Source: Escherichia coli
GTDB taxonomy: Bacteria > Pseudomonadota > Gammaproteobacteria > Enterobacterales > Enterobacteriaceae
NCBI RefSeq assembly: GCF_030013205.1
Contig: NZ_CP122648.1
Strand: one strand, 5' to 3'
DNA: 64,000 nt
The notes below the pieces were generated by a model. It saw nothing but the letters and a program-made list of their open reading frames with translations. It was not told the origin of the DNA and searched no databases. The translations under genes and the position numbers were made by a program. This document shows positions 2,039 to 48,277 of this stretch, piece after piece (position 1 is the first letter of the stretch; each line of letters opens with the position of its first letter).

Positions 2039-3925
2039 ATGTCAACCGGATTACGTTTCACACTGGAAGTGGACGGCCTGCCGCCGGATGCTTTTGCGGT
2101 GGTTTCCTTTCATCTGAACCAGTCACTCTCTTCGCTCTTTTCCCTCGATCTCTCCCTGGTCAGCCAGCAGTTTCTCTCCCTTGAATTTGCGCAGGTGCTG
2201 GACAAAATGGCCTACCTGACGATATGGCAGGGCGATGAAGTACAGCGCCGGGTGAAAGGCGTGGTGACCTGGTTTGAACTCGGGGAGAACGACAAAAACC
2301 AGATGCTGTACAGCATGAAGGTGCACCCGCCGCTGTGGCGTGCCGGTCTGCGCCAGAACTTCCGTATCTTCCAGAACGAGGACATCAAAAGCATCCTCGG
2401 CACGATGTTGCAGGAAAACGGGGTGACCGAATGGAGTCCGCTGTTCAGCGAGCCGCATCCTTCCCGTGAGTTTTGTGTCCAGTACGGTGAGACTGATTAC
2501 GATTTCCTGTGCCGGATGGCGGCGGAGGAAGGCATCTTCTTTTATGAGGAGCATGCTTACAAAAGTACCGACCAGAGCCTGGTGCTGTGCGACACAGTCC
2601 GCCATCTGCCCGAATCTTTTGAAATCCCATGGAACCCGAACACCCGTACCGAGGTGAGCACCCTCTGCATCAGCCAGTTCCGCTACAGCGCACAAATCCG
2701 CCCTTCTTCCGTGGTGACCAAAGACTACACCTTTAAACGCCCCGGCTGGGCCGGACGTTTTGAACAGGAAGGCCAGCACCAGGACTACCAGCGCACGCAG
2801 TATGAAGTGTATGACTACCCCGGACGTTTCAAGGGTGCCCACGGGCAGAACTTTGCCCGCTGGCAGATGGACGGCTGGCGAAACAATGCAGAAACCGCGC
2901 GGGGAATGAGTCGTTCGCCGGAGATATGGCCGGGACGACGAATTGTGCTGACGGGGCATCCGCAGGCGAACCTGAACCGGGAATGGCAGGTGGTGGCAAG
3001 TGAACTGCACGGCGAACAGCCACAGGCGGTGCCAGGACGGCAGGGAGCGGGGACGGCGCTGGAGAACCATTTTGCGGTGATCCCGGCAGACAGAACATGG
3101 CGACCACAGCCGTTGCTGAAACCGCTGGTCGACGGCCCGCAGAGCGCTGTCGTGACAGGACCGGCAGGCGAGGAAATCTTCTGCGACGAACATGGTCGCG
3201 TGCGGGTGAAGTTCAACTGGGACCGTTATAACCCGGCAGACCAAGACAGTTCGTGCTGGATCCGTGTGGCACAGGCGTGGGCAGGCACCGGTTTTGGCCA
3301 CCTGGCGATACCACGTGTGGGTCAGGAAGTCATTGTGGACTTCCTCAACGGCGATCCGGACCAGCCGATCATTATGGGGCGCACCTACCACCAGGAAAAC
3401 CGCCCCCCCGGCAGCCTGCCGGGAACAAAGACGCAGATGACCATCCGCTCCAAAACGTACATGGGCAGCGGATTTAATGAGCTGAAGTTTGATGATGCGA
3501 CAGGGAGAGAACAGGTCTACATCCACGCGCAGAAGAACATGGATACCGAAGTGCTCAACGACCGTACCACCACCGTAAAACACGATCACCGCGAAACCGT
3601 AAAAAATGACCAGACGGTCACGATCCAGGAAGGTAACCGCCTTCTTACGGTGGAAAAAGGCCACAAGATCACCGGAGTACTGAAAGGGTCTTTATCTGAG
3701 GATGTCTTTCAGGACAGAGGCACGATTGCCGGTTCGGTGCATGTTGACGCTGTAAACAATGGTGGCGAAGGCGACGGTATACAGGCTTATACGGCGATTA
3801 AGGAAATTTTGCTGGCCGTGGAGGAAAGCAAAATTGCGCTGACGCCGGATGGCATTCAGCTACAGGTCGGGGAATCGACGGTACCGGATCACAGGTGTCA
3901 GTCACACCGACGGGATCCGGCTTAA
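2039..3925 (+). CDS. vgrG: VgrG-family type VI secretion spike protein, apparently C-terminally truncated
   Basis: 628-aa ORF with a GGAGG ribosome-binding site; N-terminus MSTGLRFTLEVDGLPPDAF typical of E. coli VgrG; gp27-like and gp5 OB-fold regions recognisable; ORF ends shortly after the start of the beta-helix repeat region and overlaps the Rhs ORF in another frame. Confidence 0.85.
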   Translation: MSTGLRFTLEVDGLPPDAFAVVSFHLNQSLSSLFSLDLSLVSQQFLSLEFAQVLDKMAYLTIWQGDEVQRRVKGVVTWFELGENDKNQMLYSMKVHPPLWRAGLRQNFRIFQNEDIKSILGTMLQENGVTEWSPLFSEPHPSREFCVQYGETDYDFLCRMAAEEGIFFYEEHAYKSTDQSLVLCDTVRHLPESFEIPWNPNTRTEVSTLCISQFRYSAQIRPSSVVTKDYTFKRPGWAGRFEQEGQHQDYQRTQYEVYDYPGRFKGAHGQNFARWQMDGWRNNAETARGMSRSPEIWPGRRIVLTGHPQANLNREWQVVASELHGEQPQAVPGRQGAGTALENHFAVIPADRTWRPQPLLKPLVDGPQSAVVTGPAGEEIFCDEHGRVRVKFNWDRYNPADQDSSCWIRVAQAWAGTGFGHLAIPRVGQEVIVDFLNGDPDQPIIMGRTYHQENRPPGSLPGTKTQMTIRSKTYMGSGFNELKFDDATGREQVYIHAQKNMDTEVLNDRTTTVKHDHRETVKNDQTVTIQEGNRLLTVEKGHKITGVLKGSLSEDVFQDRGTIAGSVHVDAVNNGGEGDGIQAYTAIKEILLAVEESKIALTPDGIQLQVGESTVPDHRCQSHRRDPA

Positions 3926-6900
3926 ACTGACGTACCACGCCAGCGGCTACCTGAAAGCCATTCACCGCACGGATAACGGCATACAGACGCTGGCGACCTA
4001 CGAACAGGATGCGCGGGGGCGGCTGACAGAAGCGGATGCGCGGCTGGACTACCACCTGTTTTATGAGTACGACGCTGCGGACCGGATCATCCGCTGGTCC
4101 GATAACGACCAGACGTGGAGCCGTTTCACCTACGATGAACAGGGCCGGTGCGTGAATGTCACCGGGGCGGAGGGCTATTACAACGCCACGCTGGACTATG
4201 GTGACGGCTGCACCACCGTGACGGACGGCAAGGGCATTCACCGTTATTACTATGATCCTGACGGCAATATTCTGCGGGAAGCAGCGCCGGACGGCAGCAC
4301 CACCATGTATGAATGGGATGAATTCCATCACCTGCTGGCCCGTCACTCCCCTGCCGGGCGGGTGGAGAAATTTGAATACAACGCCGCACACGGTCAGTTA
4401 AGCCGTTACACGGCGGCAGACGGCGCGGAGTGGCAGTACCGCTATGATGAGCGCGGCCTGCTCAGCAACATCACCGACCCTGCCGGGCAGACGTGGACAC
4501 AGCAGTGTGATGAACGCGGCCTGCCGGTAAGTCTGGTGTCGCCACAGGGCGAAGAGACCCGGCTGGCATACACCGCTCAGGGGCTGCTGTCGGGAATATT
4601 CCGCCAGGATGAACGGCGTCTGGGCATAGAGTACGACCACCACAACCGGCCGGAAACACTCACCGACGTGATGGGCCGTGAACACCACACCGAATACAGC
4701 GGTCACGACCTGCCGGTGAAGATGCGCGGCCCCGGCGGTCAGTCAGTGCGGTTACAGTGGCAGCAGCACCATAAACTGAGCGGCATTGAACGTGCTGGAA
4801 CCGGCGCGGAAGGATTCCGCTACGACCGCCACGGCAACCTGCTGGCCTGGACGGACGGCAACGGCGTTGTCTGGACAATGGAATACGGCCCGTTTGATTT
4901 GCCGGTGGCGCGAACGGACGGTGAAGGCCACCGCTGGCAGTACCGCTACGATAAAGACACGCTGCAACTGACAGAAGTCATTAACCCGCAGGGTGAGTCA
5001 TATCTTTATGTTCTGGATAACTGCGGCCGGGTGACGGAAGAGCATGACTGGGGCGGCGTGGTCTGGCGTTACCGCTATGACGCCGATGGCCTGTGTACCG
5101 CCAGGGTCAACGGCCTGGAGGAAACCATCCTCTACAGCCGGGACGCCGCAGGCCGCCTGGCAGAAGTCATCACGCCGGAAGGCAAAACGCAGTATGCGTA
5201 TGACAAATCCGGCAGGCTTACGGGTATCTTCAGCCCGGACGGCACATCACAGCGCACCGGCTATGACGAACGCGGGCGGGTGAATGTCACCACTCAGGGC
5301 CGACGGGCCATTGAATACCACCACCCCGATGAACACACCGTCATCCGCTGTATCCTGCCACCGGAAGATGAACGCGACAGACACCCCGGTGAATCCCTGC
5401 TGAAAACCACGTACCGCTACAACGCCGCCGGAGAACTGACGGAGGTTATCCTGCCGGGGGATGAGACGCTGACGTTCAGCCGTGATGAGGCAGGACGTGA
5501 AGTGCTCCGGCACAGTAACCGGGGTTTTGCCTGTGAACAGGGCTGGAATGCAGCCGGCCAGTCTGTCAGCCAGCGCGCCGGATTTTTCCCGGAAGAAGCC
5601 ACATGGGGCGGGCTGGTTCCGTCACTGGCGCGGGAATACCGTTATGACAGCGCGGGCAATGTGTCGGCTGTCACCAGCCGGGAAGATTACGGACGGGAAA
5701 CACGGCGGGAATACCGGCTGGACCGGAACGGCCAGGTCACGGCGGTGACAGCCTCAGGCACCGGGCTGGGCTATGGCGAAGGCGATGAGTCCTATGGCTA
5801 TGACAGCTGCGGCTACCTGAAGGCGCAGTCTGCGGGCTGGCACCGGATAAGTGAAGAGACTGACCAGTATGCCGGAGGCCACCGGCTGAAACAGGCCGGA
5901 AACACGCAGTATGACTATGACGCCGCAGGCCGGATGGTCAGCCGCACCAGACACCGTGACGGCTATCGCCCGGAAACAGAGCGGTTCCGGTGGGACAGCC
6001 GTGACCAGCTGACCGGGTATTGCAGCGCACAGGGTGAGCAGTGGGAATACCGCCACGACGCCAGCGGCAGACGAACAGAGAAACGCTGCGACCGGAAGAA
6101 AATCCGCTTCACGTATCTGTGGGACGGCGACAGTATTGCGGAAATCCGGGAATACCGCGATGATAAACTGTACAGCGTACGGCACCTGGTGTTTAACGGC
6201 TTTGAGCTGATAAGCCAGCAGTTCAGCCGGGTACGGCAGGCGCATCCGTCGGTGGCCCCGCAGTGGGTGACACGGACGAATCATGCGGTGAGCGACCTGA
6301 CGGGCCGTCCGCTGATGCTCTTTAACAGTGAAGGTAAAACCGTCTGGCGACCGGGACAGACCAGCCTGTGGGGGCTGGCACTCAGCCTGCCCGCAGACAC
6401 CGGCTACCCGGACCCGCGCGGGGAACTGGACCCGGAAGCCGACCCCGGCCTGCTGTATGCGGGACAGTGGCAGGATGCAGAATCCGGGCTGTGCTATAAC
6501 CGGTTCCGGTATTACGAGCCGGAAACCGGGATGTACCTGGTGAGTGATCCGCTGGGGTTGCTGGGGGGTGAGCAGACTTACCGGTATGTGCCAAATCCGT
6601 GTGGGTGGGTTGATCCGCTGGGATTGGCTGCAAGTTCTAAAATCAGCAGTTTGATGGACTATATTGGCGATGGTCGTCGTGTTAGTGGGCATACGGGTTT
6701 CCTGGATGGGGTTCGTTTATCACGTAGTCAAATAAACAATATTGCTAAAGAAATGGAGAAGCTAGGAATTAAAGTAATAAGGAAAGCAGATAAATATTTG
6801 CCACCAAATGCTAGGGCAGCTTTTGATTATGGCCTTCGCAATATTTATCTTAGGAAAAATGCCACCTTATATGAGGTGTATCATGAAGTGATTCATGCTA

Positions 6901-7079
6901 AGCAATTTGCGAAAATTGGACGAGAAGCATACGAAGCACTAGGACGTTTATCTAGGGAGGAACACGTTCTAAATGAAATATTAAAAAGTAAAAATTTATT
7001 CAATGAAGCGGAAATAGCTCATGCCATAAAATATGTTGAGGGATTGAGAGAAAAATTCATGATGGGACTAATAAATTGA
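3849..7079 (+). CDS. Rhs-family YD-repeat protein lacking the usual N-terminal region, with a C-terminal HExxH-containing tip
   Basis: 1076-aa ORF full of YD repeats (e.g. RYDxxGRL, YxYDxxG); core ends in the hallmark PNPCGWVDPLGL motif (~6590-6630), followed by a ~149-aa AT-rich tip containing HEVIH (6882-6896). The first ATG is inside the repeat region and no PAAR-like N-terminus is present, so this may be a fragment or pseudogene. Confidence 0.8.
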   Translation: MAFSYRSGNRRYRITGVSHTDGIRLKLTYHASGYLKAIHRTDNGIQTLATYEQDARGRLTEADARLDYHLFYEYDAADRIIRWSDNDQTWSRFTYDEQGRCVNVTGAEGYYNATLDYGDGCTTVTDGKGIHRYYYDPDGNILREAAPDGSTTMYEWDEFHHLLARHSPAGRVEKFEYNAAHGQLSRYTAADGAEWQYRYDERGLLSNITDPAGQTWTQQCDERGLPVSLVSPQGEETRLAYTAQGLLSGIFRQDERRLGIEYDHHNRPETLTDVMGREHHTEYSGHDLPVKMRGPGGQSVRLQWQQHHKLSGIERAGTGAEGFRYDRHGNLLAWTDGNGVVWTMEYGPFDLPVARTDGEGHRWQYRYDKDTLQLTEVINPQGESYLYVLDNCGRVTEEHDWGGVVWRYRYDADGLCTARVNGLEETILYSRDAAGRLAEVITPEGKTQYAYDKSGRLTGIFSPDGTSQRTGYDERGRVNVTTQGRRAIEYHHPDEHTVIRCILPPEDERDRHPGESLLKTTYRYNAAGELTEVILPGDETLTFSRDEAGREVLRHSNRGFACEQGWNAAGQSVSQRAGFFPEEATWGGLVPSLAREYRYDSAGNVSAVTSREDYGRETRREYRLDRNGQVTAVTASGTGLGYGEGDESYGYDSCGYLKAQSAGWHRISEETDQYAGGHRLKQAGNTQYDYDAAGRMVSRTRHRDGYRPETERFRWDSRDQLTGYCSAQGEQWEYRHDASGRRTEKRCDRKKIRFTYLWDGDSIAEIREYRDDKLYSVRHLVFNGFELISQQFSRVRQAHPSVAPQWVTRTNHAVSDLTGRPLMLFNSEGKTVWRPGQTSLWGLALSLPADTGYPDPRGELDPEADPGLLYAGQWQDAESGLCYNRFRYYEPETGMYLVSDPLGLLGGEQTYRYVPNPCGWVDPLGLAASSKISSLMDYIGDGRRVSGHTGFLDGVRLSRSQINNIAKEMEKLGIKVIRKADKYLPPNARAAFDYGLRNIYLRKNATLYEVYHEVIHAKQFAKIGREAYEALGRLSREEHVLNEILKSKNLFNEAEIAHAIKYVEGLREKFMMGLIN

Positions 7080-7327
7080 TAAAACATAACAAAATAACTA
7101 TCGAAATGGCTCTTGACTTGGCTCGGCGTGAGTTAGAGTTAAGGGAAATTCCTTATATTAAAAATAGTCTACATGCCAATTACAGCTATAAATCTATTAG
7201 TATTGGTTCTAAGCAAGGTTGGTTAATTTCAGCGAAATTAAAAGTCCCTGAAACTTTTGAGCCTGATATGATATTTATTGAGATATCTGACCCAGAAGGT
7301 TTTATTAATATTCCTGATGTATTATAA
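7076..7327 (+). CDS. Small ORF immediately downstream of the Rhs tip; candidate cognate immunity protein
   Basis: 83-aa ORF with a TTG start overlapping the Rhs stop (alternative ATG at 7106); AT-rich like the toxin tip; position is the classic rhs-immunity arrangement. Function inferred from context only. Confidence 0.45.
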   Translation: MIKHNKITIEMALDLARRELELREIPYIKNSLHANYSYKSISIGSKQGWLISAKLKVPETFEPDMIFIEISDPEGFINIPDVL

Positions 7328-7789: not shown

Positions 7790-9010
7790 TTACCTGAAGC
7801 TGTTTTTTATTGCTTATACATGATCAAATACTCCTTACATAATTAAGGAGAACAAAATGGAACTTAAAAAATTGATGGAACATATTTCTATTATTCCCGA
7901 TTACAGACAAGCCTGGAAAGTGGAACATAAATTATCGGATATTCTATTGTTGACTATTTGTGCCGTTATTTCTGGTGCGGAAGATTGGGAAGATATAGAG
8001 GATTTTGGGGAAACACATCTCGATTTTTTGAAGCAATATGGTGATTTTGAAAATGGTATTCCTGTTCACGATACCATTGCCAGAGTTGTATCCTGTATCA
8101 GTCCTGCAAAATTTCACGAGTGCTTTATTAACTGGATGCGTGACTGCCATTCTTCAGATGATAAAGACGTCATTGCAATTGATGGAAAAACGCTCCGGCA
8201 CTCTTATGACAAGAGTCGCCGCAGGGGAGCGATTCATGTCATTAGTGCGTTCTCAACAATGCACAGTCTGGTCATCGGACAGATCAGGACGGATGAGAAA
8301 TCCAATGAGATTACAGCTATCCCAGAACTTCTTAACATGCTGGATATTAAAGGAAAAATCATCACAACTGATGCGATGGGTTGCCAGAAAGATATTGCAG
8401 AGAAGATACAAAAACAGGGAGGTGATTATTTATTCGCGGTAAAAGGAAACCAGGGGCGGCTAAATAAAGCCTTCGAGGAAAAATTTCCGCTGAAAGAATT
8501 AAATAATCCAGAGCATGACAGTTACGCAATGAGTGAAAAGAGTCACGGCAGAGAAGAAATCCGTCTTCACATTGTTTGCGATGTCCCTGATGAACTTATT
8601 GATTTCACGTTTGAATGGAAAGGTCTGAAGAAATTATGCGTGGCAGTCTCCTTTCGGTCAATAATAGCAGAACAAAAGAAAGAGCCAGAAATGACGGTCA
8701 GATATTATATTAGTTCTGCTGATTTAACCGCAGAGAAGTTCGCCACAGCAATCCGAAACCACTGGCACGTGGAGAATAAGCTGCACTGGCGTCTGGACGT
8801 GGTAATGAATGAAGACGACTGCAAAATAAGAAGAGGAAATGCAGCAGAATTATTTTCAGGGATACGGCACATCGCTATTAATATTTTGACGAATGATAAG
8901 GTATTCAAGGCAGGGTTAAGACGTAAGATGCGAAAAGCAGCCATGGACAGAAACTATCTGGCGTCAGTCCTTGCGGGGAGCGGGCTTTCGTAATCTTGCC
9001 CTGCCTGCTC
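7790..9010. mobile_element. H-repeat (ISAs1-family) element; boundaries approximate
   Basis: Contains the 378-aa H-repeat transposase gene; this type of element is known to accompany Rhs elements. Ends were not mapped. Confidence 0.6.
7857..8993 (+). CDS. ISAs1-family (H-repeat-associated) transposase
   Basis: 378-aa ORF with AAGGAG ribosome-binding site; sequence [32 protein letters not shown] matches the YhhI/YdcC H-rpt protein family as I recall it. Confidence 0.85.
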
Positions 9011-17948: not shown

Positions 17949-19433
17949 ATGCGAAAAATAATTACTCATTTCAAAGTTGTTTTAACGTTACTTCTACCAG
18001 TAACCGTATCTGCCCAGCAGATACAGTGGCAATCCTGTATGGCCAGTCAATTCAACCACTGGTTTGGTGAGGAAAAACCGTCTCCTGACTTACTATGTGG
18101 TTATTTGTCTGTTCCATTAAAATATACAGACACAGGCGGAGATGCTTCTTATGAAAAAAAATCACAAGTCAAACTAGCGTTGACAAAATTGCCGGCAAAA
18201 AGCAAGCATAAAGGAAGTATCCTGATAATAAGTGGTGGTCCCGGGTTACCAGGCATAAATCCTTATATTAACTTTGACTGGCCAGTCACAAATCTTCGTG
18301 AGTCATGGGATATTATTGGATTTGATCCTCGAGGCGTCGGACAGTCCACTCCGACAATAAACTGCCGGCAATCAGATACAGAGACTCAGGAAAACATAAC
18401 CGAAAAGCAACAAGTATTAAATAAAATTAATGCCTGTATCCATAATACCGGAGCCGAAGTCATTCGCCATATCGGCTCTAACGAGGCTGTGTACGATATT
18501 GATCGTATTAGGCAAGCCTTGGGGGATAAACAACTGACAGCCGTGGCGTATTCGTATGGAACTCAAATTGCAGCCTTATATGCAGAACGTTTTCCCTACA
18601 ACGTAAGATCTATCGTTCTTGATGGAGTCGTCGATATCGATGACCTGGAGGACAACTTCACATGGCAACTCAAACAGGCACAGAGTTATCAGGAAACGTT
18701 TGATCGCTTTGCATCCTGGTGTGCGCGTACAAAAAGTTGCCCGCTTTCTTCAGACAGAGATAAGGCAATAACTCAGTTCCATGAGCTATTATCAAAATTA
18801 CATCACAAACCTTTATTAGACAGTAAGGGAGAAAATATATCTTCAGATGAACTCATATCATTAACAACAGACCTTCTGCTATGGCGTTCATCATGGCCAA
18901 CCCTTGCAACTGCCATACGCCAGTTCTCTCAGGGGATTGTCAGTAATGAAATTGAAACTGCGCTCAGTGCTCCGATAGCCTCAGAAGAGTCAAGCGATGC
19001 TTCGGGGGTAATCCTCTGTGTAGATCAGGGGGATGAGCAATTAACACCAGAAGAGCGAAAATCCCGAAAAGACGCTCTTGCGAATGCCTTCCCGGCTATT
19101 AACTTTGACAATGGACGTTCCGATTCACCTGATTTTTGTGAATTATGGCCAATACATAGCGACCTGAACAAAACTCGCCTGAAAAATATTGTTCTGCCCT
19201 CTGGTTTACTGTTTGTAGCACACAAATACGACCCAACAACGCCCTGGATTAATGCCCGTAAGATGGCAGAGAAATTTTCCAGCCCGTTACTAACAATAAA
19301 TGGTGATGGGCATACATTAGCTCTCACCGGAGTTAATTTATGTGTAGATAAAGCAGTTGTACATCACCTGATCACTCCACAAAAAATAGAAAATATATAC
19401 TGCCCAGGAAATTCTGAAGCAGAAATACAATAA
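17949..19433 (+). CDS. Secreted alpha/beta-hydrolase, S33/TAP-like peptidase family (putative)
   Basis: ATG at 17949 gives MRKIITHFKVVLTLLLPVTVSAQQ (signal peptide); nucleophile elbow VAYSYGTQ; size (~494 aa) and layout resemble proline iminopeptidase / tripeptidyl aminopeptidase-type hydrolases. Confidence 0.6.
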   Translation: MRKIITHFKVVLTLLLPVTVSAQQIQWQSCMASQFNHWFGEEKPSPDLLCGYLSVPLKYTDTGGDASYEKKSQVKLALTKLPAKSKHKGSILIISGGPGLPGINPYINFDWPVTNLRESWDIIGFDPRGVGQSTPTINCRQSDTETQENITEKQQVLNKINACIHNTGAEVIRHIGSNEAVYDIDRIRQALGDKQLTAVAYSYGTQIAALYAERFPYNVRSIVLDGVVDIDDLEDNFTWQLKQAQSYQETFDRFASWCARTKSCPLSSDRDKAITQFHELLSKLHHKPLLDSKGENISSDELISLTTDLLLWRSSWPTLATAIRQFSQGIVSNEIETALSAPIASEESSDASGVILCVDQGDEQLTPEERKSRKDALANAFPAINFDNGRSDSPDFCELWPIHSDLNKTRLKNIVLPSGLLFVAHKYDPTTPWINARKMAEKFSSPLLTINGDGHTLALTGVNLCVDKAVVHHLITPQKIENIYCPGNSEAEIQ

Positions 19434-19978: not shown

Positions 19979-20647
19979 ATGGTGAAATTAATGAAAAAAA
20001 ACACAGATGATGGGGCTAAAATTTACACACCACTTACCCTAAAGCTTTATGACTGGTGGGTTTTGGGAGTATCAAATCGGCTTGCATGGGGATGTACTAC
20101 AAAGGAACACCTTCTTCCACACTTTCTGGAACATTTAGGTAACAACCATCTGGATATTGGTGTTGGAACTGGGTTTTACCTTACTCACGTACCTGAGAGT
20201 AGTCTGATATCTTTAATGGATTTGAACGAAGCTAGCCTGAACGCGGCATCTACAAGGGCTGGGGAATCAAAAATTAAACATAAAATTAGCCATGATGTTT
20301 TTGAACCTTATCCCGCGGCGTTACATGGTCAATTTGATTCCATTTCCATGTTTTACCTTCTTCACTGCCTGCCTGGAAATATATCTACAAAAAGCTGTGT
20401 AATACGCAATGCGGCGCAGGCCTTAACTGACGATGGAACTCTATACGGAGCCACAATTCTTGGCGATGGAGTTGTGCACAATAGCTTCGGTCAAAAACTG
20501 ATGCGCATTTACAATCAGAAAGGCATCTTTTCAAACACAAAAGATTCCGAAGAAGGCTTAACACATATACTCTCAGAGCATTTCGAGAATGTTAAAACCA
20601 AGGTTCAAGGTACTGTAGTAATGTTTTCCGCTTCAGGGAAAAAATAG
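19979..20647 (+). CDS. Class I SAM-dependent methyltransferase (putative)
   Basis: 222-aa ORF with Rossmann motif I (LDIGVGTGFY); sits between the two direct repeats, opposite in orientation to neighbouring phage genes. Confidence 0.65.
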   Translation: MVKLMKKNTDDGAKIYTPLTLKLYDWWVLGVSNRLAWGCTTKEHLLPHFLEHLGNNHLDIGVGTGFYLTHVPESSLISLMDLNEASLNAASTRAGESKIKHKISHDVFEPYPAALHGQFDSISMFYLLHCLPGNISTKSCVIRNAAQALTDDGTLYGATILGDGVVHNSFGQKLMRIYNQKGIFSNTKDSEEGLTHILSEHFENVKTKVQGTVVMFSASGKK

Positions 20648-20687: not shown

Positions 20688-20747
20688 CATAATCCCAATG
20701 ATTACTCCCTGACAGGGTTCGTAGGCCACTCAATATCAGGTGCAGTT

Positions 20748-20867
20748 GATGTATCAACACGGTTCAGCAACACCCGATACTTTTTCCAGGCTTCCAGCAA
20801 TGAGGTTTCTTCCTCCGTTGCGATTTCCAGATCCACAGCATCCTGAAGTGGCGCAATATGCTCACTG
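20748..20867. repeat. Direct repeat copy B (~120 bp)
   Basis: Hand alignment to 19699-19818. Confidence 0.8.
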
Positions 20868-21104
20868 GCTACCCTGGCGACGCGCCTTACGCGTTAACCA
20901 GCCTTCTGCTTCCAGCCGTGCGATAGCCGTTCTGACGGTACTCATCCCCGCGCCAATCTGGCGTGCAATGGTTTCAATTGATGGCCAGCACACACCTTCG
21001 TCATTACTGAAATCAGCCAGGCGGGCCATAATTGCCACGCTGGATAACTTCATGCCTGACGCAGCGCAACCATCCCATACATAGCCGGTTAATTTAGTGC
21101 TCAT
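20862..21104 (-). pseudogene. Phage HTH protein (replication-initiator-like N-terminus), truncated / frameshifted
   Basis: 80-aa ORF with HTH (SIETIARQIGAGMSTVRTAIARLE); the homologous continuation ([20 protein letters not shown]...) is in another frame immediately downstream. Confidence 0.5.
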
Positions 21105-21113
21105 GACCGACCT

Positions 21114-21452
21114 CTATTTCCCTGAATTTACGACGAAACTGTTCGAGCGGGCTGAAGCACTCATGCTCATAGCCTTCGCGGAGGTAGATAACCCGTTGTG
21201 TTTCCGGCTCCCAACGAATGACTCTGACGGGTACTCCGTAGTGATCTTTGAACCAGCGGTTAACTTGTCGCAAAGGACTGTCTCCTTCTGCCGGTTGAAA
21301 TCACCCACAGCCCACTCTGCAAAGCTGTGGGTTACAATTTCCCTGTCACCTGGTACATTCACTGCATAGCAATATTCCACCTTCGCTTTTCCACCCGGTA
21401 CAGGAAGCGCAATCAGTTGCGAGCGACGGTAGTGTGTTGTTAAACTGTTCAT
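21114..21452 (-). CDS. Hypothetical phage protein
   Basis: 112-aa ORF; ATGA overlap with the upstream CII-like gene suggests translational coupling. Confidence 0.4.
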
Positions 21453-22018
21453 GCGTTAGTTTCTCCACAACCAGAAGCAATCGACGCCACGACGCCCGGA
21501 GCTGCACACTCGCGGGCGTCATTACTTTCTGAAATGCAAAAAATTTTGTAGACAAGTGCTGCATGCTCCTGCAGCTTCGAAATTGAGAGATACAGCTCGT
21601 CGTTAATTGCTGTCTTCTCATGCGGTTCCACTACACCGTCTTCGATTGCTGAACGAATCTGTTTTGAATAACTGCCGATCTGTTCAATGACTTCCAGCAG
21701 ACGCTGGTTAATATCGGCGTTGTCCACATCCTCGACGTCAGGAAGAGACACAAAGACGCCATTTGCAGACTGCGCCACAGCATCAGCAATGAAGTGAGTG
21801 CCACCAGCACGCTGTAAAACCATTGCCCATCCCAGCGGGAAAATCTGATCGCCATCTGCACGAAGGCGGTTGAATAAAGCGTTTTCTGTTACATCGAGCC
21901 AGTCAGCCGCTTCAGCGTAACCACCCGGCAACGCCGCGATAGTTTTTCTGACAGCTTTCACGTACCACTCAGGCTGTTTTTCTATTTTCCAGTGATGCTT
22001 ACCCACGATTAGCCTCAT
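21449..22018 (-). CDS. Phage CII-like / YdaT-family regulatory protein (putative)
   Basis: 189-aa ORF directly downstream of the cro-like gene in the rightward early operon; assignment by position and general resemblance. Confidence 0.45.
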
Positions 22019-22049
22019 CGTTCTGTGGTTAAAAATTGAAAGTGTTCTG

Positions 22050-22274
22050 CTAATCTTTCGGATAGATATCCGGTCTTAAGTCAGATTTCGTAATTGCACC
22101 TGACGTGCATTGCTCAAGTTTTTTAGCCAGCACAAAACTGGCTTTTTTATAGCCATTGAAAACCAGCCGTAAGTAGCCAGGTGTTGAGCCAACTTTTCCG
22201 GCCAACTCGCCCTGCTGTTCTTTGGTTAAAGAGTCCCAATACGCTTTCATACAATATGTACCTCCGATGTACAT
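22050..22274 (-). CDS. Cro-like / YdaS-family HTH regulator
   Basis: Small ORF divergent from the cI-like repressor; likely true start at MKAYWDSL (22250); HTH-like GSTPGYLRLVFNG segment. Confidence 0.6.
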   Translation of the reverse strand: MYIGGTYCMKAYWDSLTKEQQGELAGKVGSTPGYLRLVFNGYKKASFVLAKKLEQCTSGAITKSDLRPDIYPKD

Positions 22275-22325
22275 ATCACATGATTAAAATGAACCTTCAA
22301 GATACTTGTACCTTAACGGTACAAG
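22258..22325. promoter_or_regulatory. Divergent cI/cro control region with palindromic operator-like sites
   Basis: Perfect palindrome cttgtacc-ttaac-ggtacaag (22305-22325) and tgtacc...gtaca (22258-22274) between the divergent repressor genes. Confidence 0.6.
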
Positions 22326-22340
22326 GGTTTTAATTTCGTT

Positions 22341-23015
22341 ATGAAAACAATCCATGACATCCGGCGGTCTAACGCCAGAAAACTGAGAGATGGTGTTGGC
22401 GGGAATTCTTCCTTTGCCACTATGATTGATCGCGAGCCAACCCAGACCAGCAGGTTTATGGGAGATGGTGCTACTAAAAATATCGGTGACAGCATGGCAC
22501 GACACATCGAAAAATGTTTCGACCTGCCTGTCGGATGGCTCGATCAAGAACACCAGACAACGAACATCACAAAAAAACCTGATGTTTCAATCACTAATAA
22601 ACAAATCACATTAGTCCCTGTCATATCATGGGTACAGGCCGGAGCATGGAAAGAAGTTGGATATTCTGAGGTTGATTTGAGCACAGCAGAAACGTATCCC
22701 TGCCCTGTACCCTGTGGGGAAATGACTTATATCCTGCGGGTGATAGGTGATTCAATGATTGATGAGTACCGCCCGGGAGACATGATTTTTGTCGATCCTG
22801 AAGTACCTGCCTGCCACGGTGACGACGTTATTGCATTGATGCACGATACAGGTGAAACCACCTTCAAAAGGTTGATAGAAGATGGGACACAGCGTTATCT
22901 CAAAGCGTTAAACCCAAACTGGCCTGAGCCTTACATTAAGATCAACGGTAATTGCTCTATAATTGGAACTGTGATTTTCTCAGGAAAACCAAGAAGATAC
23001 AAAATCAAAGCCTAA
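22341..23015 (+). CDS. CI-like phage repressor with LexA/S24 autopeptidase domain
   Basis: 224-aa ORF; N-terminal HTH region and C-terminal S24 domain (GDSM..., TFKRL). Confidence 0.8.
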   Translation: MKTIHDIRRSNARKLRDGVGGNSSFATMIDREPTQTSRFMGDGATKNIGDSMARHIEKCFDLPVGWLDQEHQTTNITKKPDVSITNKQITLVPVISWVQAGAWKEVGYSEVDLSTAETYPCPVPCGEMTYILRVIGDSMIDEYRPGDMIFVDPEVPACHGDDVIALMHDTGETTFKRLIEDGTQRYLKALNPNWPEPYIKINGNCSIIGTVIFSGKPRRYKIKA

Positions 23016-23027
23016 TCAATGTTTATG

Positions 23028-23052
23028 AACCTGCTTCGGCAGGTTTTTTTAT
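23028..23052 (+). terminator. Rho-independent terminator after the cI-like gene
   Basis: aacctgc-ttcg-gcaggtt stem-loop followed by ttttttt. Confidence 0.7.
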
Positions 23053-23054
23053 AC

Positions 23055-23082
23055 TTGACAATGTACCTTTGAGATACATAAT
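23055..23082 (+). promoter_or_regulatory. Candidate early-left (pL-like) sigma70 promoter overlapping tgtacc operator half-sites
   Basis: TTGACA (23055-23060), 16-bp spacer, CATAAT (23077-23082); two atgtacc motifs resembling the cI/cro operator half-sites. Confidence 0.5.
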
Positions 23083-23192
23083 GTACCCAAGAGAAACAAC
23101 AAACAGGCAGGACCCCCACGAAGTATCCGCCTGGGGCATATGAAGTTCAGGATGATTCGTTAGCAACAAAAAAGCGCCCTACAGGACGCTTA

Positions 23193-23204
23193 GCTCTTTA
23201 ACAA
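23193..23204 (+). promoter_or_regulatory. boxA-like element (GCTCTTTAACAA)
   Basis: 12-nt match to the rrn boxA consensus (TGCTCTTTAACAA) about 110 nt downstream of the candidate pL-like promoter. Confidence 0.35.
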
Positions 23205-23229
23205 TCTGGATATCCACAACAGTAGTAAT

Positions 23230-23721
23230 CTACAGATTGCCGTTAAGTTTTCTGGACAACTCCTCAATGGATGGAGGCGATACGTAATCCGGATTTTTAT
23301 TCATCAGAAACTTATTTTCACAGTGGAGGCACCTGCTTTTATGAAAAAGCTCATCTTCGCTAACCGGGAATGGTTGAAGTATCGATACTATCTTTTGTCC
23401 AAAACATTTTGGGCAAAGATGCATGGTTATGCTGCCACCGTTCACGATTACCTCCTTCGAGTATACAAAAGTACCCGACTCAAGTTGGTTAAGGATATAG
23501 CCTTCCGTCTGAGCCTCAAAGTTTTCGAATTCTGCAATTTTAGCTTTGAGAGAAGCATTTATTTCTTGATAAGAGCCCACCAGTTCAACGAGAGACACGC
23601 ATTCGCGCTGAATAGACGCAAGCTTTGAGTTCAGCTCACCAATAGCCGCATTTACTTCAGCTTGAGTTTTTGCCTCGTTCATTAGTTTTGCAATCTGGGC
23701 TGTTTCACGAATAGCCGTCAT
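23230..23721 (-). CDS. Hypothetical coiled-coil protein with C-terminal CxxC...HC zinc-ribbon-like motif
   Basis: ORF 23230-24009; the N-terminal 96 codons look like non-coding read-through, so the probable start is MTAIRETAQ (23721); C-terminus has CPKCFGQ...CLHCEN; oriented antisense to the predicted early-left transcript. Confidence 0.5.
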   Translation of the reverse strand: MTAIRETAQIAKLMNEAKTQAEVNAAIGELNSKLASIQRECVSLVELVGSYQEINASLKAKIAEFENFEAQTEGYILNQLESGTFVYSKEVIVNGGSITMHLCPKCFGQKIVSILQPFPVSEDELFHKSRCLHCENKFLMNKNPDYVSPPSIEELSRKLNGNL

Positions 23722-24030
23722 TGCTGCCGTTAATTCAGCGATCACATTGAATACTCTTATTGTTGTTGGGGATATCCAGATTAACCGAATCCTTGTTGTT
23801 GGGGAATAACCAGGTCCACCTCGCCTGATGTGGCTAAAAGCAGGCACATAACAGCTAAGTATTTTCAACCAGAGAGAATCCTTAGCGTTGTGGTGAATGC
23901 GGCTCAGCGCACGCGGGTTAAGGTTGAGGCTGACAGTCGACCTTCTGTGGATACCCACCCGCCTGGTGTGCAACCTTCGCCAGGCACCGGGAGGCACCCG
24001 GCACCACAACTTTATGCTGTGTGTAGTCCT

Positions 24031-24166
24031 GGCGGTACCAGCTTGTACCCTTGCTTCCGGCTGGTACCGTCCTTTTTACAAAACAGAGAAGAGCATCACC
24101 GGACGACGGGCTCATAACCCAATCCATCCGGGCGGCGGCCACCACAGGTGTTCTTCTCTGTTTTGT
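24031..24166 (+). other. Structured GC-rich non-coding segment: terminator-like hairpin plus U-run followed by a long imperfect hairpin (candidate regulatory RNA or leader)
   Basis: 12-bp stem 24031-24042/24060-24071 followed by ttttt (24073-24077); 16-bp stem 24078-24093/24151-24166 enclosing a GC-rich apical region; no credible ORF. Confidence 0.4.
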
Positions 24167-24214
24167 GGAGAAACTAATCGGCCTTGCAGGGTCGATATGA
24201 TGAGGAGCAGCAAA

Positions 24215-24577
24215 ATGGCTAGCGAACGCAGTACTGATGTGCAGGCATTTATCGGGGAGCTGGACGGCGGCGTATTTGAAACCAAAATCGGCGCAGTTCT
24301 CAGTGAAGTCGCTTCCGGTGTGATGAACACGAAAACCAAAGGTAAGGTCTCACTCAACCTGGAAATCGAACCATTTGATGAGAACCGTGTGAAAATCAAA
24401 CACAAACTCTCATATATTCGCCCGACTAACCGCGGGAAAATTTCCGAAGAAGACACCACCGAAACGCCGATGTATGTCAATCGCGGTGGTCGCCTGACTA
24501 TTCTGCAGGAAGACCAGGGACAATTACTGACTCTTGCCGGTGAACCTGACGGAAAACTCCGCGCAGCAGGTCGTTAA
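24215..24577 (+). CDS. YfdP-like phage protein
   Basis: 120-aa product from MASERSTDVQ with GAGGAG ribosome-binding site; matches the size and sequence I recall for K-12 CPS-53 YfdP. Confidence 0.7.
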   Translation: MASERSTDVQAFIGELDGGVFETKIGAVLSEVASGVMNTKTKGKVSLNLEIEPFDENRVKIKHKLSYIRPTNRGKISEEDTTETPMYVNRGGRLTILQEDQGQLLTLAGEPDGKLRAAGR

Positions 24578-25594: not shown

Positions 25595-26656
25595 ATGTCA
25601 TTTATTAAAACTTTTTCCGGGAAGCATTTTTATTATGACAAGATAAATAAAGACGACATCGATATTAACGATATCGCGGTTTCCCTTTCAAATATCTGTC
25701 GCTTTGCCGGTCATCTTTCGCACTTCTACAGCGTCGCCCAACATGCGGTTCTTTGCAGCCAGCTGGTGCCGCAGGAATTTGCTTTTGAAGCGTTAATGCA
25801 TGATGCAACAGAAGCGTATTGCCAGGACATTCCCGCACCACTGAAACGCCTTCTTCCTGACTATAAACGGATGGAAGAAAAAATAGACGCCGTAATCCGT
25901 GAGAAATACGGGTTATCAACTCAGACAAAGGCAAAGCATCTTGCCATGATAAAGGCCATTCTCCGTGCTGCAGAACGCGACTGGAAGTGGCTGGAAAAAG
26001 CGCCTGTCATCAAGATACCAGCGGTCAGAAACAAGCGAGTCAGATGGCTGGAAAAGGAGGAAGCAAAACGCCTTATTGATGAGTGCCCCGAACCACTGAA
26101 ATCTGTCGTCAAGTTTGCGCTGGCAACTGGTCTGAGAAAGTCGAACATCATAAATCTGGAATGGCAACAAATCGACATGCAGCGACGAGTTGCCTGGGTG
26201 AATCCAGAAGAGAGCAAATCAAACCGCGCCATTGGTGTGGCGCTGAACGATACCGCCTGTAAAGTGTTGCGTGATCAAATAGGCAAGCATCACAAATGGG
26301 TGTTTGTACATACCAAGGCGGCTAAGCGAGCAGATGGAACATCAACGCCTGCGGTCAGGAAGATGCGCATCGACAGCAAGACATCATGGCTATCAGCTTG
26401 TCGTCGTGCAGGAATTGAAGATTTCCGTTTCCATGACCTCAGACACACCTGGGCAAGCTGGCTGATCCAGTCAGGCGTCCCATTATCTGTGCTTCAGGAA
26501 ATGGGCGGATGGGAGTCCATAGAAATGGTTCGTAGGTATGCTCACCTTGCGCCTAATCATTTGACAGAGCATGCAAGGAAAATAGACGACATTTTTGGTG
26601 ATAATGTCCCAAATATGTCCCACTGTGGAATTATGGAGGATATAAAGAAGGCGTAA
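25595..26656 (+). CDS. Chimeric ORF: YfdR-like HD-domain N-terminus fused in frame to a tyrosine-integrase catalytic domain (likely inactive integrase remnant)
   Basis: N-terminal ~105 aa [14 protein letters not shown]...[10 protein letters not shown] (HD motif); C-terminal ~240 aa with integrase signature [11 protein letters not shown]...VRRYAHL, ending 16 nt from the tRNA 3' end; the integrase arm/core-binding N-terminus is absent. Confidence 0.7.
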
Positions 26657-26671
26657 CTGATTGAATTGTAA

Positions 26672-26748
26672 TGGCGCGCCCTGCAGGATTCGAACCTGCG
26701 GCCCACGACTTAGAAGGTCGTTGCTCTATCCAACTGAGCTAAGGGCGC
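26672..26748 (-). tRNA. argU: tRNA-Arg (anticodon UCU)
   Basis: 77-nt sequence whose reverse complement is GCGCCCTTAGCTCAGTTGGATAGAGCAACGACCTTCTAAGTCGTGGGCCGCAGGTTCGAATCCTGCAGGGCGCGCCA; cloverleaf and UCU anticodon readable by eye. Confidence 0.93.
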
Positions 26749-48148: not shown

Positions 48149-48277
48149 GTCATACCACTCGCCTGATTATTTTTAGCTATGTTGGATTTTGCCACGGTTT
48201 ATACCGTGGCTTTTTTTGCGGTAAATTCAGGTAAAAAACGGATGCGGGATAAAATGCATCCGCTCTAATGGCAAGAG

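Follow-up and report, generated by a model that had tools for sequence, protein, structure and literature searches.

The locus described here lies in a stretch of 64,000 nucleotides of Escherichia coli DNA (hereafter the window), and its features are listed in Table 1. A first-pass annotation had proposed a cI-like repressor gene with an S24 domain, divergent from a cro-like and a CII-like gene. Genes of these kinds were found where it had placed them or close by, namely ymfK on the plus strand and ymfT and ymfL on the minus strand (PGAP gene names).

Table 1. Genes and predicted control elements of the ymfK-ymfT region, in window coordinates.
Feature	Position	Strand	Basis and remarks
Truncated replication-initiator gene O' (oweE-like; N-terminal HTH domain only)	20876-21104	-	Pfam HTH_36; alignment to intact O
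DUF4222 ORF	21094-21273	-	Overlaps ymfM in other frame; Pfam E 8.6e-19
ymfM ORF (K-12 SfiC division inhibitor)	21114-21452	-	Directly downstream of ymfL; 112 aa annotated
ymfL, phage 186 CII (CP76) family	21449-22006 (alternative start 22018)	-	Pfam PF06892 and PHROG 101
ymfT/croE, Cro-like HTH protein	22050-22250	-	66 aa; PHROG 35; first gene of PR operon
Predicted operator OR-A, TGTACCTCCGATGTACA	22257-22273	.	Exact TGTAC-N7-GTACA; reads TGTACC-TCCGA-TGTACA
Predicted PR: TTGAAG (22300-22295), 16-nt spacer, T[A>G]ATAT (22278-22273)	22273-22300	-	Sigma-70 scan
Candidate weak operator OR-B, TGAACCTTCAAGATACT	22290-22306	.	3 mismatches to core motif
Predicted PRM: TTGTAC, 17-nt spacer, TTTAAT (22329-22334)	22306-22341	+	Promoter scan and K-12 leaderless mRNA
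Predicted operator OR-C, TGTACCTTAACGGTACA	22307-22323	.	Core of 22305-22325 palindrome; overlaps PRM -35 and spacer
ymfK/cohE, cI-like S24 repressor	22341-23015	+	224 aa; Pfam, PHROG and alignment to lambda cI
ymfK intrinsic terminator	23027-23053	+	Hairpin 23027-23046: 8-bp stem, UUCG loop; then U7
PL-like promoter TTGACA-16-CATAAT (23055-23082) with OL1/OL2	23055-23098	+	11/12 consensus match
Predicted operator OL1, TGTACCTTTGAGATACA	23062-23078	.	Motif match
Predicted operator OL2, TGTACCCAAGAGAAACA	23082-23098	.	Motif match

Residues 93-212 of YmfK matched the Pfam family Peptidase_S24 (PF00717) with an E-value of 1.5e-26 and 92.8 bits against a cutoff of 23.3. The C-terminal domain has 35% identity to lambda cI, and the nearest solved homologues of the protein are lambda cI C-terminal domains. 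The autocleavage residues are in the register of lambda cI (VQA100-G101, GDS138M and FK176RL in YmfK; VQAG, GNSM and FKKL in lambda), and the alignment predicts A100-G101 as the cleavage site and S138 and K176 as catalytic residues. For the putative N-terminal DNA-binding domain, Pfam returned no HTH match; the N-terminus matched the PHROG repressor families 12107 (E 1e-12) and 5736 (E 2e-11) as well as the N-terminus of PDB entry 5D50, 'Repressor' (E 0.0018). Between ymfK and the cI gene of phage Ayreon there are 30 synonymous and no nonsynonymous differences. This near-zero pN/pS reflects selection in phages generally and not within the remnant in which the gene now lies.

On the other strand, YmfT matched PHROG 35 'transcriptional repressor' (YdaS/Cro-type HTH) with an E-value of 3e-15, and its gene has no nucleotide differences from those of PhiR29_1 and SfIV. 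YmfL belongs to the Pfam family Phage_CP76 (PF06892; 51.5 bits, cutoff 26) and matched PHROG 101 'CII-like activator' (E 1.3e-70); the pN/pS of ymfL against SfV-group relatives is about 0.15. PGAP starts ymfL at a GTG that has the Shine-Dalgarno sequence GAGG, the alternative start being an ATG. A CII-family protein would activate an establishment promoter directed at the repressor gene; in the ymfT-ymfL spacer, inspection for such a site showed only the candidate repeats GATTAGC/GCTAATC and, twice, GTTCTG.

The ymfM/DUF4222 region is 99% identical to K-12, where ymfM is reported to be SfiC and to cause SOS-inducible filamentation (bioRxiv 10.1101/2020.11.19.390815). Where the two frames overlap, the frame-specific substitution pattern revealed purifying selection only in the DUF4222 frame, so that, if the rightward operon has been switched off (see below), the unit silenced may be the DUF4222 protein and not the annotated 112-aa YmfM. 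Alignment of O' to the intact O of PhiR29_1, and to K-12 e14 and K-12 DLP12, showed that O is cut after about 78 codons. PADLOC gave no defence-system match for the minus-strand gene at 23230-23745, yfdP, yfdQ, ymfL or ymfM.

Operators, promoters and terminator

The operator-like palindromes that had been reported between the divergent genes, at 22305-22325 and 22257-22273, were recovered and are enriched over shuffled sequence. The former, CTTGTACC-TTAAC-GGTACAAG, has perfect 8-bp arms. The operator consensus is 17 bp long, TGTACC-N5-GRTACA, and is about 30-fold enriched in the window. Exactly two matches to TGTAC-N7-GTACA occur in the 64 kb, both within the 90-bp ymfK/ymfT intergenic region. 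The sites are not due to chance: with at most one mismatch, TGTACCNNNNNGRTACA gave eight strand-hits, corresponding to five sites of which four are in OR or OL, while the shuffled control gave 0.25 ± 0.61 strand-hits and none of 100 shuffles reached eight. Across eight relatives the operators changed mainly in their central spacers and the half-sites were almost invariant. OR-A varied only in the spacer and at the position that opens its right half-site (G/A), and OR-C only at spacer positions 7 and 10; OL1 and OL2 likewise combine conserved half-sites with variable spacers.

PRM was the best plus-strand candidate both in the window and in the three relatives scored, and the stretch 22287-22345 is identical to K-12. 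Transcription from it would begin with the first base of the ymfK ATG and give a leaderless mRNA, in agreement with K-12 dRNA-seq, where the ymfK mRNA was mapped as leaderless (PMC4681348). On the minus strand, the predicted PR was the top sigma-70 candidate (score 10.3) in each of the three relatives that were scored, K-12 e14, SfIV and SfV. Its -10 element reads TAATAT in all seven aligned relatives, but the promoter as a whole matches the consensus at only 8 of 12 positions. Our literature search found no published ymfT start site, and we infer the position of PR from the sigma-70 scan.

With these assignments, OR-A would cover about -7 to +10 of PR, and it overlaps the ymfT Shine-Dalgarno sequence. 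OR-B, invariant in 8/8 relatives, would overlie the PR -35 with its centre at about -43 from the PRM start, which is the position of lambda OR2; its role is suggested by this geometry only, and it may not be a real site.

In the window the -10 element of the predicted PR is altered. A derived T->C change at 22277, which corresponds to A->G at -11 on the transcribed strand, converts TAATAT to TGATAT, and PR is absent among the top promoter candidates of the window, unlike in the relatives scored. No base of the -10 element is more strongly conserved than the A at -11. Only 7 genomes out of 5426 carry the change; the sister remnant in strain W13-16 lacks it, and it is the sole difference between the two in the 2.3-kb module. 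If the PR assignment is correct, the change may weaken rightward SOS-induced expression.

Downstream of ymfK, the clean terminator reported at first pass was confirmed, with a folding energy of -11.6 kcal/mol (z = -4.06), and a terminator is annotated at the same place in the SfV and Ayreon records. It is adjoined by the PL-like promoter, the best candidate in 20800-24300, at a position where the Ayreon record also annotates a promoter. A second operator cluster is thus present, at the level of sequence, at a leftward early promoter. No significant structure was detected in the leader downstream of PL (23083-23200, z = -0.5), and a search of the control regions against Rfam gave no regulatory RNA.

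The proposed anatomy therefore stood as far as it went; it did not include the ymfM/DUF4222 cargo, the leaderless PRM or, at 23055-23098, the PL/OL unit. The module had also been called apparently intact. All of its elements are present and it is 99% identical to e14, and to this extent the description holds, but the derived SNP in the predicted PR -10 qualifies it.

Origin of the remnant and relation to known systems

The module lies in a doubly deleted PhiR29_1-like prophage at argU (tRNA-Arg) that is fused to the DLP12 right end. PhiR29_1 is collinear with the remnant from int through O, and relative to this phage two deletions were mapped, one from O codon ~79 to tfaD and one from the HD-hydrolase gene to mid-int. 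At the first of these, O' is fused to a DLP12-type 'tfaD fragment at 20875/20876. As already proposed at first pass, the island is defective: its integrase lacks the N-terminus, and none of the genes for integration, excision, replication, lysis or the virion is present in intact form. Two candidate features at this end were discarded. An Rfam match to IS009 at 20745-20944 was rejected as an RNA, being DLP12 tfaD-derived sequence with a poorly aligning O' part, and a Pin/Gin-type crossover site at the shared O' breakpoint was rejected on sequence inspection, the junction being unlike the AAACC-NN-GGTTT core.

Among 5426 complete genomes, 17 had the O'/'tfaD junction; they all belong to a single pig-associated lineage, and the window differs from strain W13-16 by three SNPs in 12.3 kb. 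The remnant is thus recent, and for this reason retention of the module says by itself little about selection here; its intactness may reflect too little time for decay.

The module itself is widespread, being carried by 1323 of the 5426 complete E. coli genomes (about one quarter). Positions 20872-23165 are 99% identical in nucleotide sequence to the K-12 prophage e14 over 2.3 kb, with the gene order ymfK <-> ymfT-ymfL-ymfM-O of the e14 reference, and the immunity region is 99.0% identical to PhiR29_1 and 97.7% to SfIV. Repressor specificity appears to be conserved as well: the YmfK protein shows 100% identity both to its K-12 counterpart and to the cI repressors of PhiR29_1, SfIV and Ayreon, and the half-sites TGTACC/GRTACA are kept. 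Positions 21449-23052 therefore very probably represent the immunity (lysis/lysogeny switch) region of an e14/SfIV/PhiR29_1-type lambdoid prophage within a doubly deleted argU remnant of ~7 kb. An immunity region of the e14/SfV type is already known, and the SfV GenBank record labels a 'putative operator region' and a terminator; the module is real, almost intact and ordinary.

K-12 e14 shares with the remnant an identical YmfK as well as the operators, the terminator and PL, and its O gene is even truncated at the same point. It is located at icd, whereas the remnant is at argU, and the flanks differ, with yfdP/yfdQ and the DLP12-type right end in the window against ymfJ...intE and 'aaaE...mcrA in e14. 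In addition, the window carries three OR substitutions relative to e14, including the one at 22277. In K-12, late induction during the SOS response was observed for the e14 genes ymfJ, ymfM and intE and was attributed to the CI-like repressor, and the induction of ymfJ, which in K-12 lies downstream of PL, is strong (PMC11002266). Furthermore, a 'YmfT iModulon', which comprises 12 e14 genes, shows activity in delta-fur strains and upon exposure to H2O2 (PMC10602906).

The phages PhiR29_1, SfIV, SfV, Ayreon and cdtI and Stx2c-converting phages share the same cI (0-3 aa differences), cro, operators, terminator and PL. They are complete, with int/xis, replication, Q, lysis and virion genes, whereas the remnant lost these by its two deletions. 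No SfV immunity papers were found in our literature search. A P4-like termination immunity in SfV was reportedly described by Roberts et al. in 2007; it presumably resides in orf37 of SfV, a gene that takes the place of ymfM-O' in that phage and that the remnant lacks.

The resemblance to lambda comprises the divergent repressor and cro genes, the 17-bp partially symmetric operators, a repressor mRNA that has no leader, the placement of a terminator and then PL/OL behind the repressor gene, and the S24 domain with its Ala-Gly, Ser and Lys. In contrast to lambda, the operator sequence is unrelated, the sites are spaced by 33 and 17 bp (24 and 23 in lambda), no more than two OL sites are recognisable in the window, there is no N or rexAB, and YmfL is of the phage 186 CP76 family and not a lambda CII. 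The best palindrome of the window, OR-C, also lies over PRM and not over PR. In lambda, OR3 is the weakest site for cI, and the placement of the strongest-looking site over the PRM -35 counts against a lambda-like picture.

Like dicA-dicC-dicB of Qin and racR-ydaS-ydaT of Rac, the module is a case of a repressor with a leaderless mRNA kept in a defective prophage, where it is conditionally essential because it keeps a division inhibitor or some other toxic early gene silent. Neither DicA nor RacR is known to carry an S24 domain or to be cleaved in the SOS response. YmfK differs from them in having, as judged from its residues, the full autocleavage apparatus.

Proposed mechanism and its alternatives

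In the mechanism that we propose, the leaderless PRM transcript would yield YmfK (CohE), a dimer of which would bind TGTACC-N5-GRTACA at OR (22257-22323) and OL (23062-23098). Bound YmfK would repress the PL operon to the left as well as ymfT-ymfL-ymfM/DUF4222-O', the operon to the right, and the operator over the PRM -35 would limit its own synthesis. Upon DNA damage, RecA* would stimulate self-cleavage of YmfK at Ala100-Gly101 via the Ser138/Lys176 dyad, and both operons would be derepressed late in the SOS response. As there are no LexA boxes in the window, SOS input, if any, must pass through YmfK. A literature search returned no direct binding or cleavage data for YmfK and its operators. 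Since intact mobility, replication, lysis and virion genes are lacking, the sole outputs would be a transient expression of early genes, a division inhibitor among them, and immunity towards phages whose operators are the same. The repressor would be kept in the manner of an antitoxin, its loss being harmful as long as the PR operon is functional. In K-12, cohE is conditionally essential, as seen in the Keio and TraDIS data sets (PMC5992433, PMC11481867), and this would explain the retention. SOS-responsive control of the cargo and superinfection immunity against related phages, the two roles suggested at first pass, would by analogy fit the published e14 data and the identical repressor of PhiR29_1, SfIV and Ayreon.

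The module could instead be a neutral relic, intact only since both deletions are very recent, of no benefit and bound for decay. The single lineage that carries the junction and the few SNPs relative to W13-16 agree with this, and the low pN/pS of ymfK, which stems from phages generally, does so too. However, the older and independently deleted e14 of K-12 also keeps the module, with cohE essential and the genes SOS-responsive there, and loss of the repressor should be counter-selected while PR drives ymfM/DUF4222. We consider a neutral relic possible but somewhat unlikely; it and the mechanism proposed above are not mutually exclusive. A further tentative reading, which we would not favour, is that the T->C change at 22277 cripples PR, so that YmfK still confers immunity and PL control while ymfT-ymfL-ymfM are uninducible, leaving a repressor-only cassette with its 'addiction' relaxed. 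The change strikes -11 of the only good minus-strand promoter candidate common to seven relatives, is derived, and is confined to seven genomes as the only difference in the module. On the other hand, the predicted PR is an unmapped candidate, a SNP on a critical base in 2.3 kb can be due to chance, the observation was made post hoc, and another promoter might serve ymfT, although the new candidate in the window, GTGATA-17-TATTGT, would start downstream of the ymfT ATG.

Two other readings concern single elements of the module. The best Pfam match of YmfT is PF15943 'YdaS_toxin', from which ymfT might be taken for a toxin gene and the locus for a toxin-antitoxin pair instead of a phage switch. 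This match, at 24.7 bits, is below the 30-bit cutoff, and the gene stands in a canonical cI-cro-cII context that is identical in plaque-forming phages annotating it as Cro; the toxin label of YdaS is itself disputed. We thus rejected this reading as extremely improbable. It is also highly improbable that the 22305-22325 palindrome acts as an RNA hairpin (terminator or attenuator) and not as a protein-binding operator. A pattern scan of the plus strand does call it terminator-like, with an 8-bp stem and then GGTTTTAATT, but four further sites have the same half-sites around different, non-complementary spacers, and none of these combines a hairpin with a run of T. The substitutions in relatives fall in the loop/spacer, with unchanged half-sites and no compensatory changes, and the palindrome is upstream of the leaderless start and therefore outside the PRM transcript.

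Taken together, little new biology is added by the locus, as SOS responsiveness, toxic cargo and repressor essentiality have already been published. For annotation, the island can be described as a PhiR29_1-like/DLP12 hybrid remnant with e14-type immunity. We expect the strain to be immune to SfIV, PhiR29_1 and phages of their kind, which is relevant to the use of phages on pig ETEC/EDEC and to the encounter of these bacteria with phages. The K_EC180-type C and the W13-16-type T at 22277 form a natural allele pair that is usable for mapping PR and for the question of whether an active PR is needed for repressor dependence. That this change has switched off the rightward early operon in the seven pig-associated genomes and has turned a lambda-like SOS switch into a repressor-only immunity cassette is an idea that we hold to be unlikely, if not implausible. 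If true, the change would remove the toxicity that makes the repressor indispensable, and would be an observable step in the domestication or decay of a prophage.

Gene organization and predicted operators of the control module

The ORF listing and the Pfam/PHROG scans bore out the arrangement described in the first-pass annotation, in which an S24 cI-like repressor gene is divergent from a cro-like and a CII-like gene (see table). The PGAP names ymfK, ymfT and ymfL come from megablast against complete E. coli genomes. In YmfK, VQA100-G101 aligns with the Ala-Gly cleavage site of lambda cI, GDS138M with GNSM and FK176RL with FKKL, and the nearest solved structures are the lambda cI C-terminal domains, followed by UmuD and LexA. 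The N-terminal 90 residues gave no Pfam HTH match; hits were obtained with N-terminal families of repressors in PHROG, plus a weak one with the N-terminus of PDB 5D50. The protein is 100% identical to YmfK of K-12 and to cI of PhiR29_1, SfIV and Ayreon, and one residue differs in SfV cI. Relative to Ayreon, ymfK shows 30 synonymous and no nonsynonymous differences.

Features of the control module and its neighbors (window coordinates)
Feature	Position	Strand	Details
ybcY-like class I SAM methyltransferase	19979-20647	+	intact 222-aa ORF
ymfM	21094-21452 region	-	112 aa; SfiC division inhibitor in K-12
DUF4222 ORF	21094-21452 region	-	59 aa, other frame than ymfM; Pfam E 8.6e-19
ymfL	21449-22006	-	phage 186 CII family (PF06892, 51.5 bits vs cutoff 26); PHROG 101 'CII-like activator', E 1e-70
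ymfT	22050-22250	-	66 aa, Cro/YdaS-type HTH; divergent from ymfK
Site A, candidate operator	22257-22273		TGTACCTCCGATGTACA; ymfK-ymfT intergenic
Predicted PR	TTGAAG (22300-22295)-16-TAATAT (22278-22273) in relatives	-	top minus-strand candidate
Site B, weak third OR site	22290-22306		TGAACCTTCAAGATACT; 3 mismatches; invariant in 8/8 relatives
Perfect palindrome	22305-22325		CTTGTACC-TTAAC-GGTACAAG; ymfK-ymfT intergenic
Predicted PRM	TTGTAC (22306)-17-TTTAAT (22329-22334)	+	best plus-strand candidate
ymfK	22341-23015	+	224 aa; Peptidase_S24, E 1.5e-26 (Pfam)
ymfK terminator	23027-23046 + U7		folding -11.6 kcal/mol, z = -4.1
OL1, OL2, candidate operators	23062-23078, 23082-23098		just past the first-pass coordinates
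Coiled-coil, Cys-rich protein	23230-23745	-	171 aa; PHROG 1244 (unknown function); converges on ymfK

Both the palindromic operator-like sites between cI and cro and the clean terminator after cI, proposed earlier from the sequence, were found. The two intergenic palindromes have the common form TGTACC-N5-GRTACA, and the exact core TGTAC-N7-GTACA occurs twice in 64 kb, both times in the ymfK-ymfT intergenic region. With at most one mismatch allowed, a degenerate operator 17-mer gave 8 strand-hits vs 0.25 ± 0.61 in shuffles. In an alignment of eight sequences, the operators vary mostly in their central spacers while the half-sites are nearly invariant, as would be expected for protein-binding sites and not for RNA hairpins. 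OL1 and OL2 fall within TTGACA-16-CATAAT (23055-23082), which is the region's best sigma-70 match. Judged from the sequence, this PL/OL unit (23055-23098) lies downstream of the repressor terminator, as it does in lambda.

The predicted PRM start is the A of the ymfK ATG, in agreement with the leaderless ymfK mRNA detected by dRNA-seq in K-12 (PMC4681348). The PR candidate was scored in three relatives (K-12 e14, SfIV and SfV); its TAATAT -10 hexamer is carried by 7/7 aligned relatives, and the predicted start at ~22266 falls just before the GGAGG of ymfT. A search for a mapped ymfT start site found none. With these placements, site A would cover the PR start, site B the PR -35 at about -43 from the PRM start, and site C (22307-22323, within the perfect palindrome) the PRM -35 and spacer, so that B and C would correspond in position to lambda OR2 and OR3, respectively. 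The ymfT-ymfL spacer (22007-22055) is flanked by a 7-nt perfect inverted repeat (GATTAGC/GCTAATC, 35 nt between the arms) and, immediately ahead of a plus-strand TAATCT -10-like hexamer, contains two GTTCTG copies at a distance of 24 bp. Purely speculatively, this arrangement might be an establishment promoter that reads toward ymfK and depends on CII (YmfL).

The module had been called intact, and its genes, operators and terminator are indeed present, but the predicted PR -10 is changed at 22277. This position is C in the window and T in 7/7 relatives, which turns TAATAT into TGATAT (-11 A->G) and removes the PR candidate from the top promoter list of the window. The exact 35-mer spanning the SNP occurs in only 7/5426 genomes, and 22277 is among the three SNPs in 12.3 kb that separate the window from the sister remnant of wild-boar strain W13-16. 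Provided that the placement of PR is right, the 22277-C sub-lineage probably has a weakened rightward derepression; the SNP could equally be a chance hit.

Origin and distribution of the island

The island, which sits between argU and ompT at the DLP12 site, spans tRNA-Arg (26675-26748) to ~19600. Compared with PhiR29_1, it has two deletions. One runs from O codon ~79 to a tail-fibre-assembly gene (junction 20875/20876). The other (25880-25920) fuses an HD-hydrolase gene, broken in its middle (...ACGGGTTA), to int, also broken in its middle (TCAACTCAGAC...), and took out eaE, yfdT, xis and the int N-terminus; the remaining int, ~99.7% identical to that of PhiR29_1, abuts tRNA-Arg. The term defective island was correct, because no excisionase, replication, Q, lysis or virion genes are left in it. 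What lies to the left of 20875/20876 matches the right end of K-12 DLP12 ('tfaD-ybcY-tfaX) at 99% identity, and the O'/'tfaD junction was found in only 17 genomes. The independent O'/'tfaD and K-12 oweE'/'aaaE deletions have O endpoints at most 7 nt apart (GGTTACC|CTGGCG; window 20869-20880, comparison loci L002 ~8400-8410 and L005 ~4990-5000), at the exact start of the iteron-like repeats in the intact O of PhiR29_1. This could reflect a hotspot or selection for ori loss.

Block 20872-23165, oweE'-ymfM-ymfL-ymfT-ymfK to ~150 bp past ymfK, is 99% identical to K-12 e14, 99.0% to PhiR29_1 and 97.7% to Shigella phage SfIV, and its cI-cro-ymfL part is 93-95% identical in SfV, Ayreon, cdtI and Stx2c-converting phages. 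The OR-ymfK-OL segment is present in 1323/5426 complete E. coli genomes, as a single copy in K_EC180, one of the pig ETEC strains identical to the window by megablast against these genomes. Phage SfII (L011 2078-3672) has a 96.6% identical ymfL-ymfM-O but another cI/cro pair; therefore, the immunity cassette (cI-OR-cro) is swapped as a module, its mosaic boundary falling between cro and ymfL.

Neighboring genes and the ymfM overlap

The ymfM and DUF4222 frames overlap, and nine substitutions were counted in the overlap among five relatives. Eight of them are synonymous in the DUF4222 frame, the ninth being V>I, while 8/9 are nonsynonymous in that of ymfM; in addition, the match of YmfM to PHROG 20047, a 63-aa family, is confined to residues 1-63. 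YmfM thus seems to lack constraint in its C-terminal half, so that either product may be the SfiC that causes filamentation.

The 23230-23745 gene has its own terminator (23172-23191) and gave no PADLOC match. Its position is moron-like, the content differing among e14, SfV and PhiR29_1, and PL transcripts would pass through it antisense. A sub-threshold Rfam match to STnc100 (23857-24080, plus strand; 42.4 bits vs gathering score 47, E 5e-7) overlaps a hypothetical, frameshifted gene located upstream of yfdP and runs in the direction of the PL operon; an Rfam match to STnc480 lies at 48155-48221. The IS009 match (RF02111, 20745-20944, minus strand) across the O'/'tfaD junction is above the gathering score and was rejected as evidence of a junction sRNA; it aligns well only in the tfaD-derived part, which is DLP12 tfaD sequence. 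Compared with the intact ybcY-like ORF, ybcY of K-12 DLP12 is a pseudogene with a 2-nt indel near the start. Next to ompT, K-12 has appY, whereas the window has an alpha/beta-hydrolase gene (~17950-19430); further upstream (2377-7080) are truncated T6SS tssI/VgrG and zincin-toxin pseudogenes and an ISEc1 element. Labels of these two regions follow the annotation of the identical K_EC180 region.

Proposed function of the module

The module with its repressor and control regions has been described before, in e14 and in the SfV/SfIV group, and the SfV GenBank record already marks an intergenic 'putative operator region' and terminator. Two points are new: the chromosomal context, in that 17 genomes carry a PhiR29_1-like/DLP12 hybrid remnant at argU, and the 22277 SNP. 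The overall picture is not altered by either.

The function is most likely that described for the near-identical K-12 module. In K-12, e14 ymfJ (downstream of PL), ymfM and intE show late SOS induction, which was ascribed to the CI-like repressor being cleaved slowly (PMC11002266), and a 'YmfT iModulon', which comprises 12 e14 genes, shows activity under H2O2 as well as in delta-fur strains (PMC10602906). The long-sought division inhibitor SfiC is ymfM and is not under LexA control (bioRxiv 10.1101/2020.11.19.390815). Like other cryptic-prophage repressor genes, cohE (ymfK) is essential in Keio and TraDIS data (PMC5992433, PMC11481867). Together with the lack of a LexA box in the 64-kb window, this literature makes a lambda-type switch with a RecA*-cleavable repressor the best explanation. 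SOS-dependent early-gene expression and homoimmunity would then be the only outputs of the remnant, and the repressor would be retained because its loss is toxic as long as PR is active.
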